Assembly: GCA_035299545.1 (NCBI GenBank)
Contig: DATGWJ010000020.1
Span: forward strand, 1 to 57,714
Source of the DNA: Minisyncoccota bacterium
Lineage (GTDB): Bacteria > Patescibacteriota > Minisyncoccia > Phycocordibacterales > UBA9973
DNA length: 57,714 nucleotides
Reading direction: 5' to 3'
A program made the translations under genes and the position numbers. Within the stretch, counting starts at the first letter, position 1. The number at the start of each line of letters is the position of its first letter. The notes beneath the pieces are model-generated. The model made no database searches. It saw only the letters and a list, made by a program, of their open reading frames with translations, and had not been told where the DNA came from. This document shows positions 4,084-52,626 of the stretch, piece after piece.

Positions 4084-5220
4084 ATGCAAGATAGAACCCC
4101 GCTTTCATATATACAGATTTCAAAAGAAAACTTGATACATAATATTAAGCAGTTTCGTGATTTACTGAAGGGGCAAACGAAAATTGTTGCTGTTATAAAG
4201 GCGAATGCTTACGGACATGGAGATATAGTTATTGCCCAAATTGCTAGTCCGTTTGTGGATTATTTCCAAGTGGATGATATTGAAGAATATGAAAGAATCA
4301 AAAGTGCCACCAAGAAACCAGTTCTTATCTTGGGGTATTTAAATGAAGAAGGAATAAAAAAAGCGATAAAAACAAAGGCAATAATTTCAGCTTTTGACCT
4401 AGTGCATCTTTTAAAAATAAATCATATTGCTTTATCTTTAAAAACAAAAGCGAAAGTTCACTTGGCTATCGATTCTTATCTAGGAAGAGAAGGAGTAATG
4501 CCATCACAAGTGGAAAATATTATTAAGGAAATTAAAAATTTAAAAAATATTGAACTTGATGGAGTATATTCACATTTTGCAAATATTGAGGACACAATGA
4601 ATTCTACTCATGCGAACAGACAGATAGATACATATCATAAATGTGTGGAAATTTTTAAGAAAAATGGTTTCCCAAAAATTAATACTCACATTTCTGCTAC
4701 ATCAGGAATACTTGTTTATGAGAAGGGGAATAATTTGCACAATTTAGCACGATTGGGAATTGGCCTCTATGGTATGTGGCCAAGTGAACACTTGGGATAT
4801 TTAAATAAAAAGAAAACAAACTTAAAGCCAGTATTAAAATGGATTACGCATGTAGCTCAGGTGAAAGTTCTACCAGCAAATCATCCTGTCGGTTATGGTC
4901 TTACTTATATTACAAAAAAAGCTACAAAAATAGCTGTCATTCCACAAGGTTACTCGGACGGAGTCCCTAGATCTTTATCAAATAATGGTGAAGTGTTAAT
5001 AAAAGGTAAGAGAGCCAAAATTATAGGAAGAGTCGCAATGAATATGATTGTAGTAGATGTCTCAAATATAAAAGATGTAGTGCCAGAAGATGAAGTTGTG
5101 ATATTGGGAAAACAGGGGAAGAATGAGATTACAGCAGAGCAGATTGCAAAAGAATCAGGCACTATAAATTACGAAGCAACGACACGCATAAATGCGTTAT
5201 TACCAAGAATCGTAATGTAA
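4084..5220 (+). CDS. alr: Alanine racemase
   Basis: VIKANAYGHG PLP-lysine motif, GVYSHFA, VGYG, GRVAMN. Confidence 0.96.
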   Translation: MQDRTPLSYIQISKENLIHNIKQFRDLLKGQTKIVAVIKANAYGHGDIVIAQIASPFVDYFQVDDIEEYERIKSATKKPVLILGYLNEEGIKKAIKTKAIISAFDLVHLLKINHIALSLKTKAKVHLAIDSYLGREGVMPSQVENIIKEIKNLKNIELDGVYSHFANIEDTMNSTHANRQIDTYHKCVEIFKKNGFPKINTHISATSGILVYEKGNNLHNLARLGIGLYGMWPSEHLGYLNKKKTNLKPVLKWITHVAQVKVLPANHPVGYGLTYITKKATKIAVIPQGYSDGVPRSLSNNGEVLIKGKRAKIIGRVAMNMIVVDVSNIKDVVPEDEVVILGKQGKNEITAEQIAKESGTINYEATTRINALLPRIVM

Positions 5221-5223
5221 AAC

Positions 5224-5332
5224 AAAAAGAATGGATATATTATTTTATTCCTCCTTAACCCCATTCCTCGCGATTACGCTCGGAACGGCACGCCCCCGCC
5301 CGTCGTCATAAAACAACATATCCATTCTTTTT
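5224..5332 (-). repeat. Divergent member of the dispersed hairpin element (copy 5)
   Basis: 25-bp outer stem (G.U-compatible on minus strand); core GACGACGGGCGGGGGCGTGCCG-hairpin-TGGGGTTAAGGAGG; 109 bp. Confidence 0.7.
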
Positions 5333-5350
5333 AAATACAAGTTTTTTAGA

Positions 5351-5454
5351 AAAAGAACATAATATTGAAAATTTCTGAGTAGGTGTGGGCGCGCCGGAGC
5401 GAGCTTGCGAGCGGAGAGGGATAAGCGAGGAAATTTTTAATACTATGTTCTTTT
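5351..5454 (+). repeat. Dispersed hairpin element, copy 2
   Basis: 26-bp outer stem; core GAGTAGGTGTGGGCGCGCCGGAGCGAGCTTGCGAGCGGAGAGGGATAAGCGAGG. Confidence 0.9.
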
Positions 5455-5467
5455 CAATTTTAACTAT

Positions 5468-5496
5468 TTGCTTTTTTAGATATTTTATAGTACTAT
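5468..5496 (+). promoter_or_regulatory. sigma70-type promoter of rpmG (TTGCTT-17-TACTAT), 6 nt before ATG
   Basis: Direct reading of -35/-10 spacing. Confidence 0.6.
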
Positions 5497-5502
5497 ACTC
5501 GC

Positions 5503-5661
5503 ATGTCACAAGATAGACTTTTCAAATTAGCCTGTACGAAATGCAAGCGCATTAACTATTGGTCAAGCAAGAACAAAAAGCTCGTTACTAGAAAAATTGA
5601 GCTTAATAAGTATTGCAAATGGTGCAAAATTAATACTAAACACAAAGAAGCCAAAAAATAA
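5503..5661 (+). CDS. rpmG: 50S ribosomal protein L33 (Zn-binding CxxC/CxxC form); not in the ORF track
   Basis: MSQDRLFKLACTKCKRINYWSSKNKKLVTRKIELNKYCKWCKINTKHKEAKK. Confidence 0.95.
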   Translation: MSQDRLFKLACTKCKRINYWSSKNKKLVTRKIELNKYCKWCKINTKHKEAKK

Positions 5662-5689
5662 AAATCCCCATTGGGGATTTTTATTTTTT
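5653..5689. terminator. Bidirectional intrinsic terminator between rpmG and tRNA-Trp
   Basis: 17-bp IR AAAAAATAAAAATCCCC/GGGGATTTTTATTTTTT, 3-nt loop. Confidence 0.85.
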
Positions 5690-5692
5690 CTG

Positions 5693-5763
5693 CGGGCGGT
5701 GGAGGAATCGAACCCCCACCAACGGTTTTGGAGACCGTTGTTCTACCACTAAACTAACCGCCC
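5693..5763 (-). tRNA. tRNA-Trp(CCA)
   Basis: Acceptor GGGCGGT/ACCGCCC, anticodon arm ACGGT-CTCCAAA-ACCGT, G73. Confidence 0.96.
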
Positions 5764-5780
5764 TGACAAAGACGAGTATA

Positions 5781-6710
5781 CTATAAATCCGCTTTATTTT
5801 CCAGCAGAAATTCTTTTATCTCTTTTAGTGCTTTTAACTTATCATTTTTTTCTCTTGGATCAATCCAGATAATACTTTTATCACGTTTAAACCACGTATT
5901 TTGTCGTTTGGCGAAATGCCAAATTTCAGCATTCAATTTTTTTAGCATTTCCTCTTTTGTTATTTTTTTCTGCAAATAAAGTGCTACATATTTATATTCA
6001 AGACCAAGAGAATACATTCTTTTCCAAGATAGCCCTTTTCTATGCAATTTCTCCACTTCGTAAACCATCCCTTTCTTCATGCGAGCAAATAAACGAAGGA
6101 GAATTCTTTCTTTTAAAATTTCTGGTGGCACTTTTAGTCCAATTTTCAGAAAGGAGGACGGTTCTCCGAAATGTTGCTTAGAACTATTCTTAATAGAAGG
6201 AACTTTGCCAAGTGATTTGGCTATTTCTATGGCGCGGATTAAGCGAACCTTATTATTTTTATCAATAGTTTTTGCACGAGTAGGATCTAGCTTTTTTAAC
6301 ATTTCAAAAAGTTGTTCTGTTGTTTTTTTAGATAAAGTCTCACGAATTTTTTTATTGGGTGGGACTTCAGGGAAAGTAGTATTATTAACTATCGCATCAA
6401 TATAGAAACCAGTACCACCGCAGACGATAGGCACTTTTCCTTTCTTCGCTATTTCTCCAATTTTTTTAAAAGCTATCTTTTGGAAATCACTTACCGAGAA
6501 AACTTTTGATGGGGAAGTGACATCAAGAAGATGATGTGGAACTCCAAGCATCTCTTTCTTTGTAATTTTCCCTGTCCCTATATTCATGCCTTTATAAACC
6601 TGACGGGAATCAGCAGAAATTATTTCTCCATTTATTTGGTGGGCCACTTCAACAGCGAAGTCACTTTTTCCAATAGCTGTTTGTCCTAAAATTACTATAA
6701 CTTTACTCAT
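5781..6710 (-). CDS. miaA: tRNA dimethylallyltransferase (start moved to ATG 6710)
   Basis: GQTAIGKS P-loop, DSRQVYKGMNIGTGK, GGTGFY, AKRQNTWF; TG-T-TAATAT 7 nt before ATG 6710. Confidence 0.96.
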   Translation of the reverse strand: MSKVIVILGQTAIGKSDFAVEVAHQINGEIISADSRQVYKGMNIGTGKITKKEMLGVPHHLLDVTSPSKVFSVSDFQKIAFKKIGEIAKKGKVPIVCGGTGFYIDAIVNNTTFPEVPPNKKIRETLSKKTTEQLFEMLKKLDPTRAKTIDKNNKVRLIRAIEIAKSLGKVPSIKNSSKQHFGEPSSFLKIGLKVPPEILKERILLRLFARMKKGMVYEVEKLHRKGLSWKRMYSLGLEYKYVALYLQKKITKEEMLKKLNAEIWHFAKRQNTWFKRDKSIIWIDPREKNDKLKALKEIKEFLLENKADL

Positions 6711-6854
6711 ATTTCGCATATTAACATATTTTATGATAAGATAGTGATTACTTGTCCCGTCAGAAATTCTAGATTAAGGGGCATAAAAATAATCGTAATT
6801 TATCAGAATAAATTAAATTCTTATACAAAAAATAATATAAGAATTTCATTCGGG

Positions 6855-7157
6855 ATGGGATTTAAATCATTTATTACAAAACAAGCTCTTCGCATGAAAG
6901 GGGTTTCCTCGGAGCAAGCAGAAAAAATAGCAAAACAATTGGATGAAAATCCAGAAATGGCAGAAAGCTTGAAAGCTCTTGAGGGGAACAAAGAGGTAAA
7001 AGAACTTTTTGAAAAAATTACGAAAGAAATAGAGGAAAAGAAAAAAAGCGGATTAGGAGAACAATATGCTGCTGTCCTTGTGATGAGTAAATATAAAGCA
7101 GAAATAGTTAAACACAAAGAAGCTCTCGCACCACTCATGAACCTCATGCAGAAGTAG
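6855..7157 (+). CDS. Hypothetical helical protein (~100 aa; likely start ATG 6855)
   Basis: MGFKSFITKQALRMKG...; charged helical composition; ends before a terminator. Confidence 0.6.
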   Translation: MGFKSFITKQALRMKGVSSEQAEKIAKQLDENPEMAESLKALEGNKEVKELFEKITKEIEEKKKSGLGEQYAAVLVMSKYKAEIVKHKEALAPLMNLMQK

Positions 7158-19069: not shown

Positions 19070-19177
19070 AAAACAGGGGGTATTCATAAAAATTTCTTCG
19101 CTTATCCCTACCGAATCCTGCCGGATTCGGCGCGCGCCCACACCTACTCAGAAATTTTCATGAATACCTCCTGTTTT
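19070..19177 (-). repeat. Dispersed hairpin element, copy 3 (inverted)
   Basis: 28-bp outer stem; minus-strand core GAGTAGGTGTGGGCGCGCG-CCGAATCC-GGCA-GGATTCGG-TAGGGATAAGCGAAG. Confidence 0.9.
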
Positions 19178-50230: not shown

Positions 50231-51688
50231 ATGGCCTCAATCGAAGAACTACGCGACGCGCGAATTAAAAAGTTAGAAATATTAAAAGAACAAGGGCAAG
50301 ATCCGTACACTGCTCAGTCTTTTCGTACTCATACGATAAAAGAAGTTATAGATGGTTTCGAAATTCTTTCTAAGGATAATAAAGAAGTTACTATAGCTGG
50401 AAGAGTAATGTCTCTTCGAGGTCAAGGGGCGCTTATATTTTTCAATATTACAGATGGTAGTGACTCATTCCAAGGATTAATTAAGAAAGGAGAAATAGAA
50501 GATAATCTCTTTAAGCTTTTTGTTGATGCTATAGATATCGCTGACTTTATAGAAGTTACAGGTACTTTATTTAAAACTAAAACCGAACAACAAACGGTTC
50601 TTGTGAAGAGTTGGAGAATACTTACAAAAGCATTACAACCGCTTCCAGAGAAATGGCACGGTCTCCAAGATATAGAAGAAAAGTTTCGTAAAAGATATCT
50701 TGATATTCTCACTACCGATGAACTTAGAGAGCTTTTTGAAAAGAAAGCAAAATTCTGGGAAGTCACAAGAACGTTTATGAAAGAGCACGGCTTCCTTGAA
50801 GTAGAAACTCCAACTCTTGAAATTACAACAGGAGGAGCAGAAGCAAATCCATTCAAGACGCACCATAAAGATTTTGATGTTGATGTTTATCTTCGTATTT
50901 CAGTCGGAGAGCTTTGGCAGAAGCGCTTGATGTCGGCTGGTTTTCCTAAAACATTTGAAATCGGTAGAGTTTACAGGAATGAAGGAAGTAGTGCAGACCA
51001 TCTTCAAGAATTTACAAACATGGAATTCTACTGGGCTTATGCAAATTATAAAGATGGAATGAAACTCGCAGAAGAACTTTATCAAAAGATTGCGATGGAT
51101 GTCTTTGGGACAACTGTATTTGAGACAAGGGGACACAAGTTCGACCTTGCTGGTTCATGGCCTGTCATAGAATATCGCGAAGAAGTTTTGAAGCAGACTG
51201 GGATAGATGTATTAAAAGCAACAGAGAAAGAAATGAGTGATAAGCTCGATGAAATTCATATTAAATACGAAGGAAACAATCGTGAAAGATTAATGGATAC
51301 ACTTTGGAAATATTGCCGAAAGAATATTGCGGGTCCAGCATTTTTGATACATCATCCTAAATTAGTTTCTCCATTATCAAAAGCATGCGCTGATAATCCT
51401 GAATTGACAGAACGATTCCAAATTATTATCGCCGGAAGTGAAGTAGGGAATGGATTCTCTGAATTGAACGACCCTATTGACCAGCGAGCTCGATTTGAAA
51501 CACAACAGAAATTAATAGAAAAAGGGGACGAAGAAGCAATGATGCCAGAATGGGATTTCGTAGAAATGCTAGAACACGGTATGCCTCCAACTTGTGGTTT
51601 TGGATTCGGTGAGAGATTGTTCTCTTTTATGGTAGATAAACCAGTTCGTGAGACACAACTATTTCCACTAATGAAGCCAAAAGAGTAA
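50231..51688 (+). CDS. lysS: Lysyl-tRNA synthetase, class II
   Basis: FLEVETP, GGAEANPF, YRNEG...HLQEFT, TERFQ, NGFSELNDP, GMPPTCGFGFG. Confidence 0.97.
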   Translation: MASIEELRDARIKKLEILKEQGQDPYTAQSFRTHTIKEVIDGFEILSKDNKEVTIAGRVMSLRGQGALIFFNITDGSDSFQGLIKKGEIEDNLFKLFVDAIDIADFIEVTGTLFKTKTEQQTVLVKSWRILTKALQPLPEKWHGLQDIEEKFRKRYLDILTTDELRELFEKKAKFWEVTRTFMKEHGFLEVETPTLEITTGGAEANPFKTHHKDFDVDVYLRISVGELWQKRLMSAGFPKTFEIGRVYRNEGSSADHLQEFTNMEFYWAYANYKDGMKLAEELYQKIAMDVFGTTVFETRGHKFDLAGSWPVIEYREEVLKQTGIDVLKATEKEMSDKLDEIHIKYEGNNRERLMDTLWKYCRKNIAGPAFLIHHPKLVSPLSKACADNPELTERFQIIIAGSEVGNGFSELNDPIDQRARFETQQKLIEKGDEEAMMPEWDFVEMLEHGMPPTCGFGFGERLFSFMVDKPVRETQLFPLMKPKE

Positions 51689-51797
51689 GACTTAAAAATA
51701 TGTTTGAAATTTCTGAGTAGGTGTGGGCTCGCCGGAGCAAGCGGTGGCTTGCGGAGAGGGATAAGCGAAGAAATTTTAAATATATTTTGAAGTTTTA
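51686..51797 (+). repeat. Dispersed hairpin element, copy 4
   Basis: 29-bp outer stem beginning at the lysS stop codon; core nearly identical to copy 1. Confidence 0.9.
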
Positions 51798-51809
51798 ATT
51801 TTTAATAAA

Positions 51810-52020
51810 AAATAAAAAAGCCGTCTTTCCATGAAAGACGGCTTTTGGGTTCTTTAATATCTAAGAATGGTTCCATTTTCACTGCACTTTCGTATGGAAA
51901 ACAATGCTGGTTTCTGCTGAGGCTTTAGGCGCTCAACCTGTCATTGTCTTATTCTTAGACGGATTCGGCTACTTTTTCAATATTAGCCGGTAAATTAAAG
52001 AACTATATGTGGGAGATTTC
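51810..52020 (-). ncRNA. Candidate orphan structured non-coding RNA (~210 nt)
   Basis: Own promoter and terminator, no credible ORF, five nested stems. Confidence 0.6.
51816..51846 (-). terminator. Intrinsic terminator (probably bidirectional; stronger U-tract on minus strand)
   Basis: AAAAGCCGTCTTTC-CAT-GAAAGACGGCTTTT. Confidence 0.85.
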
Positions 52021-52026
52021 AGGGTT

Positions 52027-52055
52027 ATTCTAGTATAGATGCTAAATTAAGTCAA
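52027..52055 (-). promoter_or_regulatory. Promoter of the candidate ncRNA (TTGACT-17-TAGAAT)
   Basis: Near-consensus -35/-10 with 17-nt spacing. Confidence 0.75.
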
Positions 52056-52072
52056 ATTTTAAATTTTTTAAG

Positions 52073-52081
52073 TTATCCACA
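52073..52081 (+). promoter_or_regulatory. Consensus DnaA box upstream of the mraZ promoter
   Basis: TTATCCACA. Confidence 0.55.
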
Positions 52082-52086
52082 GTTAA

Positions 52087-52152
52087 GTGGGGTATTTTGT
52101 TTGTATTGTGGGTCAAAGTGGTTTATAATATAAGCAAGTGGGATATAGTGGG
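52087..52152 (+). promoter_or_regulatory. mraZ promoter (TTGTAT-17-TATAAT, 52101-52129) with MraZ-type GTGG(G) repeats
   Basis: GTGG(G/T) at 52087, 52108, 52118, 52138, 52148 (~10-bp phase), resembling known MraZ boxes. Confidence 0.75.
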
Positions 52153-52191
52153 AAATCAATTTTTAATCCATTTTTATCTCACAAAACATTT

Positions 52192-52626
52192 ATGCTTATT
52201 GGAGAATACACACATACACTTGATGATAAGAATAGAATGTCATTACCCGTTAAATTCCGAAAGGAGATGGGGAAGAGTGTTGTTGTTGCTCCAGGTTTAG
52301 ATAACTGTCTTTCTATCTTTACGACGAAAGAATGGCAGAAGGTTTCCGAAAAACTTTCTGACTCATCCATGCTCGCAAGTGATAATAGAAGTTTCTCGAG
52401 ATTTATATTTGGTCAAGCTGTGATAGCAGATGTAGACAGTAACGGACGAATATTAATCCCGGAAAATTTGAAGAATCGTTCAGGCCTTACAAGTAAGGTT
52501 GTGGTTATTGGCGTGCAAAATCGTGCAGAAATTTGGAATGAAAAGACATGGAATGATTACAAGAAGAAAGTAGAAACACAGGCAGATGCCCTCGCAGATA
52601 AATTAGGGCAAATAGGAGTTCTTTAA
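52192..52626 (+). CDS. mraZ: Division/cell-wall cluster regulator MraZ (start ATG 52192)
   Basis: MLIGEYTHTLDDKNRMSLPVKFR, DSNGRILIP, VIGVQNRAEIW. Confidence 0.96.
   Translation: MLIGEYTHTLDDKNRMSLPVKFRKEMGKSVVVAPGLDNCLSIFTTKEWQKVSEKLSDSSMLASDNRSFSRFIFGQAVIADVDSNGRILIPENLKNRSGLTSKVVVIGVQNRAEIWNEKTWNDYKKKVETQADALADKLGQIGVL

Follow-up and report, generated by a model that had tools for sequence, protein, structure and literature searches.

A probable structured RNA gene of a new family, back-to-back with mraZ in a Candidatus Paceibacteria genus

The minus-strand stretch that lies between lysS and mraZ (positions 51810-52055 of the window, i.e. of the whole stretch of 57,714 nucleotides that was analysed) is very likely a non-coding RNA gene with its own promoter and terminator, to judge from its sequence signals. 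Fold, homologues and covariation make it highly probable that the gene is genuine and that its structured RNA belongs to a new family. Overall, the unit is best explained, with a probability of roughly 0.6, as an independently transcribed gene for a structured non-coding RNA that would act in trans, bind a partner and be coupled to MraZ and DnaA.

The gene signals on the minus strand and the extent of the unit were as follows:

Promoter, 52055-52027, minus strand: sigma-70-type, with -35 TTGACT (52055-52050), a 17-nt spacer and -10 TAGAAT (52032-52027)
5' leader, 52020-52004, minus strand: unpaired, GAAAUCUCCCACAUAUA, from predicted folds and comparison of upstream sequences
Structured core of 155 nt, 52003-51849, minus strand: from the 5' strand to the 3' strand of helix P1, from the covariance model and the fold
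Intrinsic terminator, 51846-51816 with a U-tract to 51806, minus strand: 14-bp stem containing six G-C pairs, 3-nt loop, then TTATTTTTT

The promoter TTGACT-17-TAGAAT has 10 of 12 consensus matches and was the best site of the region in a promoter scan. A start at ~52020 was derived from the position of the -10 element, and the predicted minus-strand transcript, of about 211 nt, runs from ~52020 to ~51810. The terminator is bidirectional: the hairpin is recognisable as one on the plus strand as well and is thus common to the RNA unit and the convergent lysS (50231-51688, plus strand), which together with mraZ forms the nearest genes. The leader GAAAUCUCCCACAUAUA is particular to the copy in the window (hereafter the window copy), and other members of the family begin about 4 nt 5' of P1. 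Within the unit, the ORF list contained no minus-strand ORF of 30 or more amino acids, and comparison of the homologous sequences revealed no ORF common to them. The sequence-only reading of this DNA had ascribed to the unit its own minus-strand promoter and terminator and no credible ORF, and this was borne out by the 10/12 site at 52055-52027, the 14-bp hairpin at 51846-51816 and the lack of any ORF kept across the homologues.

The predicted secondary structure was compared with a background of shuffled sequences (200 shuffles). The 216-nt unit folds with -59.9 kcal/mol and a z-score of -5.87, which none of the 200 shuffles equalled. With the terminator removed, the core reached a z-score of -4.29 on the minus strand (again equalled by 0/200 shuffles), against -2.13 on the plus strand. 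Eight helices (P1, P2a, P2, P3, P3a, P3b, P4 and P5) form two nested three-way junctions. Those delimited in the window copy are listed here, with A5 and A7 denoting the two alignments described below:

P1, 51997-52003 (GUUCUUU) with 51849-51855 (AAAGAAC), minus strand: seven pairs that never vary in A5 and A7
P2a, 51993-95 with 51963-65 (AUU/AAU), minus strand: flanks P2
P2, 51966-51989, minus strand: hairpin CGGCUA/UAGCCG with the 12-nt loop L2, AUAUUGAAAAAG, at 51983-51972
P3, 51951-51960 (GUCUAAGAAU) with 51859-51868 (AUUCUUAGAU), minus strand: ten pairs, nine of them compensatory in A7
P3a, 51942-48 with 51900-06 (GACAAUG/CAUUGUU), minus strand: arm that encloses P4, from minimum-free-energy folds and A7
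P4, 51932-37 with 51916-21 (GUUGAG/CUCAGC), minus strand: loop CGCCUAAAGC
P5, 51871-51899, minus strand: hairpin UUCCAU/AUGGAA, whose loop holds C-GAAA-G, a GNRA-type tetraloop, at 51886-51893

The sequence of P1 is identical in six members and is lengthened to 10 bp in the window copy (51849-58/51994-52003). Compensatory changes were seen in five of the six stem pairs of P2, the sixth pair existing solely in the window copy, and its loop follows the consensus AUAnUrAAAAAG in six members. The P3a/P4 arm recurs at the same place in every member's separate minimum-free-energy fold. All the main stems that had been proposed from the letters alone (corresponding to P1, P3, P5, P3a and P2) are present in the minimum-free-energy fold of the window copy, and the multibranch character claimed for it takes the form of the two nested three-way junctions, in both the fold and the alignment. 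One detail was revised: the helix inside the stem 51901-06/51942-47 of the P3a arm is better described by GUUGAG/CUCAGC (P4) than by GGTT/AACC.

Homologues were obtained solely through synteny and structure-aware searches; BLASTN of the unit against 60 related genomes returned no match. Five clear relatives and one divergent relative were found, all in the slot between the lysS terminator and the mraZ control region. The clear relatives are four species representatives of the Paceibacteria genus (G015, G031, G097 and G099) and the metagenome contig L059, and the divergent one is G030. L059 came from a metagenome scan based on LysS. Its unit agrees with the window copy in its ends (GTTCTTT...AAAGAAC) and hairpin loop, and its long stem covaries; the slot of G031 holds another such unit. 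A covariance model, R1, was built from three sequences (the window copy, L059 and G031), and G015 was recovered with it. A pattern scan of one genome per species, covering 185,579 species, identified L156 (= G097) and L160 (= G099), whose records are titled Candidatus Paceibacteria/Paceibacterota; only members of the genus were retrieved. The unit of G030 has the same boundaries and helix order and an AUAGGGG motif, is without the L2 motif, and is missed both by R1 and by the rebuilt covariance model, R2. The core of the window copy scored 131 bits with R1 and 96 bits with R2.

Every member is convergent with lysS, and the terminator directly follows the RNA and is itself followed by the end of lysS. 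A TTGACT-16/17-TAnAAT promoter lies 5' of the RNA in L059, G015, L156 and L160 and is not evident in G031; in G015, two ORFs are inserted between the RNA and mraZ. Pairwise identity among members is merely 38-64%, and the window copy is the most divergent of the clear members, with 38-55% identity to the others. It is missing the L4 loop UAAGUAAAC common to the other members and has CGCCUAAAGC there; at J5/3, where the others have the motif AUAGUGGG or AUAAGGG, it has only CC. The C-GAAA-G loop of P5 is also present in L059 and G030. The window copy nevertheless has the features by which the family is recognised: P1 as GUUCUUU...AAAGAAC with the terminator after it, the L2 hairpin, the long P3, and the position on the minus strand, where the unit is bounded on one side by the lysS terminator and on the other by the TGTG(G/C)ATAAC box in the control region of mraZ. 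The description of the unit as an orphan held as far as Rfam is concerned, but it belongs to a small family with five clear relatives and one divergent one, and the syntenic homologues between lysS and mraZ that this description had called for were found within the genus. Its placement of the DNA among Parcubacteria was also right, to judge from the record titles of the relatives.

Covariation was evaluated on a model-made alignment (A5) and on a hand-built structural alignment whose letters were checked against the sequences (A7). In A5, 91% of cells were paired, compared with 40-51% in slid controls, and 12 pairs had two-sided changes; P1 was invariant, and two-sided changes occurred in 5/5 pairs of P2 and 7/9 pairs of P3. 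A7 comprises 46 pairs in the eight helices, with 98.4% of cells paired (slid controls 42-47%) and compensatory changes in 36 of the 46 pairs, and none of 500 shuffles attained any of the measures, although a set of just six or seven sequences makes these covariation statistics weak in absolute terms. Because A7 was adjusted manually to the structure, over-fitting in AU-rich sequence is possible for the short helices P2a, P3b and P5 (3-4 bp); P2, P3, P3a and P4 are solid helices. Every helix other than the invariant P1 has compensatory changes. The wobble pairs in A7 amount to 15 G-U and no A-C, and the pairing is thus kept on the promoter-sense strand only.

Rfam 15 was searched at several levels. 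At the gathering score, the whole window yielded five tRNAs only; at E<=10, the region 51650-52200 gave only chance matches, driven by the terminator hairpin and far below the gathering scores; and the five homologous loci had no match at the RNA. The earlier failure to recognise SRP RNA, RNase P, tmRNA, 6S or a common riboswitch by their hallmark motifs was thereby upheld, as no Rfam family matches any member. Taken together, these comparisons support the view that the RNA represents a small, previously undescribed family with members in a single Candidatus Paceibacteria genus only.

Individual candidates were considered separately. For 6S RNA (RF00013), neither the region nor the genome gave a match at E<=10, and in place of a rod with a central bubble the fold is branched; the unit resembles 6S RNA in its size, strong promoter and independent gene, but differs in lacking a covariance-model match and in not being universal in its clade. 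SRP RNA (RF00169, RF01854) did not match either, and in the apparent CAGGU...AGCAG likeness the AGCA lies inside a perfect 6-bp stem, with no GNRA loop. The genome's own tmRNA is located elsewhere (contig C24, 70553-70963, ARAGORN). A T-box (RF00230) or lysine riboswitch (RF00168) was suggested by the adjacency to lysS, the AAAAAAG loop and UGGG in J5/3. These elements regulate lysyl-tRNA synthetase or lysine genes, and likewise combine a multi-helix junction with an A-rich loop containing AAA/AAG. The RNA described here, however, is not in the lysS leader but downstream of and convergent with lysS, has no model match at E<=10, and is without T-box sequence or a conserved antiterminator; the AAAGA/UCUUU pairing of the window copy is missing from other members, and the suggestive motif is not found in all of them. 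A decayed small-ORF gene was rejected since members share no ORF and the small ORFs of the slot in other species are heterogeneous. An integron attC site or MITE does not fit, as GTTCTTT deviates from the core GTTRRRY (RYYYAAC) and no genome has more than one copy of the unit, and a pattern scan of IMG/VR for a viral or mobile origin gave five matches, all with chance-level model scores of 19-22 bits. GGA motifs, as in a CsrA-type sponge, are frequent in G015 and not in the window copy. Pseudoknots between L2 and J5/3 or between L2 and L4 were sought, and the only candidates were AU-rich 4-mers, unconvincing and not the same from one subgroup to the next.

In the course of these searches, the signal recognition particle was also surveyed. 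No SRP RNA (RF00169, RF01854) was detected in this genome or in 40 relatives of the order. This genome has no Ffh M domain (PF02978, SRP_SPB) and no ORF with a DTAGR motif, and a true SRP54-type GTPase (PF00448) was found in none of 31 genomes, which gave only P-loop matches of ~20 bits, whereas 14 of 14 control genomes scored. By these profile and motif searches, the whole SRP pathway (Ffh, FtsY and 4.5S RNA) may be missing from this order of Paceibacteria.

Several described RNAs offer partial parallels. Like oxyS/oxyR, gcvB/gcvA and sgrS/sgrR of enterobacteria, the unit is a stand-alone small RNA gene with a sigma-70 promoter and an intrinsic terminator, which diverges from a regulator gene, in this case mraZ, with regulator sites in the intergenic region between the two. 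OxyS, GcvB and SgrS are simple, seed-driven, Hfq-dependent antisense regulators; the RNA here has no sequence or structural homology to them, possesses eight covarying helices, and its control by MraZ is inferred. The raiA motif RNA and other motifs of the Rfam 'Gene; sRNA' type from the Breaker/Weinberg screens likewise measure about 150-200 nt, have a covarying multi-junction fold with conserved loop and junction nucleotides, and carry their own promoter and terminator without an associated ORF. In contrast to these, the present family has no Rfam 15 match and is limited to one genus, to ~5% of its species and to a single fixed hypervariable slot. The mraW RNA motif (RF01746) is also a structured RNA beside the start of the dcw cluster. 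In the division/cell-wall cluster of Actinobacteria it forms part of a 5'-UTR, on the strand of the operon itself, whereas the RNA here lies on the opposite strand, has its own terminator and lacks a covariance-model match to that motif.

The region separating the RNA from mraZ contains the following elements:

Shared control region, 52072-52152: DnaA box and five GTGG-type MraZ boxes
DnaA box, 52073-52081, plus strand: TTATCCACA, perfect, ending 16 nt upstream of the -35 element of the RNA
MraZ boxes, 52087-91, 52108-12, 52118-22, 52138-42 and 52148-52: GTGG/CCCAC, phased at 10 nt

The MraZ box has been described as GTG(G/T) with 6-nt spacers and a 10-nt period (PMC12957436). Strong conservation over the ~110 nt that precede mraZ was seen at about 40 loci of the genus. 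The control region that the RNA had been said to share with the division operon is real in this sense, its DnaA box and MraZ boxes being kept across the genus. For mraZ, the ORF list gives a GTG start at 52138 (162 aa), and relatives align only from residue 13-19 onwards; from this alignment the gene most likely begins at the ATG at 52192 (144 aa, MLIGEYTH...), which makes the intergenic region 503 nt long. Within the genus, MraZ proteins share 75-95% identity, and their gene is usually preceded by lysS.

Directly beyond the DnaA box the sequence turns variable. Elsewhere in the genus, the slot contains the lysS terminator alone, or a divergent promoter with a small ORF and a terminator (many species), or a non-coding unit (few). 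The small ORFs encode 43-101 aa, belong to several unrelated types, have a divergent promoter similar to that of the RNA and share its orientation. In the slot after TGTGGATAAC at loci L022-L062, one ORF subgroup ends in ..EID.M.V and another shares ..INL.PVK..LE.QS.Y.KAK... In three RNA-bearing species (L165/L132 = G031, L156 and L160), TGTGCATAAC replaces the DnaA-box sequence TGTGGATAAC beside the RNA promoter. On the other side, between the lysS stop and the shared terminator and outside the RNA, 51707-51785 is a GC-richer copy of a dispersed repeat of ~75 nt. At least nine further copies with 85-90% identity are present in the genome (e.g. 2746-2816, 5369-5442 and on contigs C11, C13, C21 and C29), and a partial match lies at 19089-19157 of the window.

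To describe the distribution of the family, R2 was run over 93 species representatives of the genus, and the RNA was present in five (this genome, G000, and G015, G031, G097 and G099), with one copy per genome and always at the lysS-mraZ slot. In about 400 other genomes of the order, heavily pre-filtered before the R2 search, nothing credible was found, the best matches reaching 28-29 bits over 60-80 nt. An exact-protein look-up with MraZ for near-identical strains returned no record. The family may be larger than seen here, given that only one metagenome scan was made, with LysS as the query. Such rarity and patchiness (5/93 species) mark the RNA as an accessory gene and not as a conserved partner of the division operon.

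A tree of MraZ and RsmH places four carriers in a well-supported clade of eight members, together with four non-carriers, and L059 and G030 elsewhere, and it requires at least five gains or losses of the RNA. Grouped by similarity, the RNAs form L059/L160/G015 and G031/L156, with G000 alone, which conflicts with that tree. Because the RNA groups disagree with the tree of the flanking genes, the promoter-RNA-terminator unit behaves like an exchangeable accessory cassette; judged by these sequence comparisons, it appears to have been exchanged between lineages as one of several alternative cargoes of the slot. Two LysS types, with about 40% identity between them, also occur at the locus. The LysS of this genome is 77-88% identical to those of G020, G030, G032 and L052-L062. 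With the LysS of most other species it shares only about 35-45% identity, even though the MraZ of those species remains ~90% identical. The LysS types are patchily distributed on the MraZ and RsmH tree, which suggests xenologous replacement or recombination. Together with the off-tree RNA groups, the patchy LysS types point to the lysS-mraZ region as a recombination hot spot. At L160 (positions 4291-7060, G099), a lysS frame of 645 aa precedes a 208-aa ORF, and the usual LysS C-terminus (..FFPIMKPRE) is encoded separately after it, beside the RNA terminator, an arrangement that may reflect an insertion within lysS.

As regards function, the RNA would work in trans as a folded particle, a role as mRNA, as leader in cis or as simple antisense RNA being less likely. 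A fold this elaborate, with two junctions, conserved loops and a P1 of invariant sequence, leads us to infer a folded particle that recognises a partner, most likely by binding a protein or a small ligand (or another RNA) through the conserved loops and P1. Its synthesis is probably coupled to the control of the division operon by MraZ and DnaA, as suggested by proximity alone, i.e. by a promoter 16 nt from the DnaA box and adjoining the MraZ box array. Co-control with the division operon is plausible by analogy with small RNA genes that diverge from the gene of their regulator. The three members with the mutated box TGTGCATAAC speak against this coupling. As a specific mechanism, the trans-acting, partner-binding and MraZ/DnaA-coupled RNA is put forward only tentatively. 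In a bolder and rather doubtful version, the complex-folded RNA belongs to a new functional class, as a ribozyme or as a sensor of a ligand or protein, and would be an RNA counterpart of the small-protein genes that occupy this divergent slot, controlled by MraZ and DnaA, in other species. If true, it would be an exchangeable accessory module of ultra-small episymbiotic bacteria, either tuning their division or growth or forming a conflict system.

Among the rival explanations, a base-pairing small RNA acting in trans deserves the most weight, while still being unlikely. Its seed would be the L2 sequence AUAnUrAAAAAG or the C-rich CUCCCAC of the window copy's leader, and its targets would be mRNAs, possibly of division or cell-wall genes. 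A stand-alone promoter/terminator unit divergent from a transcription-factor gene, as in oxyS/oxyR and gcvB/gcvA, the retention of L2 in six members and a terminator hairpin at the 3' end, typical of small RNAs, are all consistent with it. Eight covarying helices with two junctions are, however, far more elaborate than usual in seed-type small RNAs; the leader motif is missing from the other members and the L2 motif from G030, and L2 consists of A and U only, so that matches in a genome of such AT-richness are uninformative. Action in cis is considerably less probable. The unit would then insulate the mraZ operon from lysS read-through, or act as a lysS antisense through regulated read-through of the shared terminator, in keeping with its constant convergence with lysS, the bidirectional terminator common to both, and the like orientation of all cargo of the slot, small ORF or RNA. 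Insulation, though, needs no conserved and covarying fold of 150 nt, and species with an empty slot cope without the unit; a conserved antiterminator (AAAGA/UCUUU being absent from other members) and a T-box or lysine-riboswitch signal at E<=10 are both lacking.

The rarity and the cassette-like behaviour of the unit could also be explained by an element that is selfish or neutral. A small mobile or selfish DNA element, with GTTCTTT...AAAGAAC as its terminal inverted repeats and hairpins at the DNA level without an RNA function, would account for the patchy distribution, the conflict of the RNA groups with the phylogeny of the flanks and the invariant end sequences, in a genome rich in small palindromic and dispersed repeats, one of them 60 nt away (51707-51785). 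We regard it as very improbable: each genome has one copy, invariably at the lysS-mraZ slot, the supposed repeats are inherited together with a promoter and a terminator located beyond them, the 15 G-U and no A-C pairs show pairing kept on one strand only, viral contigs scored no better than chance, and the ends do not fit the attC core GTTRRRY. Least credible of all is a highly divergent housekeeping RNA (6S or SRP RNA) missed by the Rfam models. It is true that neither RNA is detectable in this genome, nor SRP RNA in 40 relatives, but presence in 5/93 species of the genus is incompatible with a housekeeping role and effectively refutes it; moreover, nested three-way junctions are neither the 6S rod nor SRP helix 8 with its GNRA loop and AGCA internal loop, and the SRP proteins themselves seem to be absent, no SRP_SPB or true SRP54 domain having been found.

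The preferred reading thus remains that of an independently transcribed, structured RNA gene. Bacteria of the Candidate Phyla Radiation have tiny genomes and, to our knowledge, their regulatory RNAs are almost wholly uncharted. Here a genome of 746 kb retains a 155-nt RNA of eight helices, and the maintenance of the fold at 38-64% identity argues for a specific molecular function. The value of the finding is limited by the narrow distribution of the family; the seed alignment and covariance model are now available for finding further members in metagenomes. Lying back-to-back with mraZ, with the DnaA and MraZ boxes in common, the RNA provides a testable handle on how accessory regulators may be coupled to cell division in these organisms.
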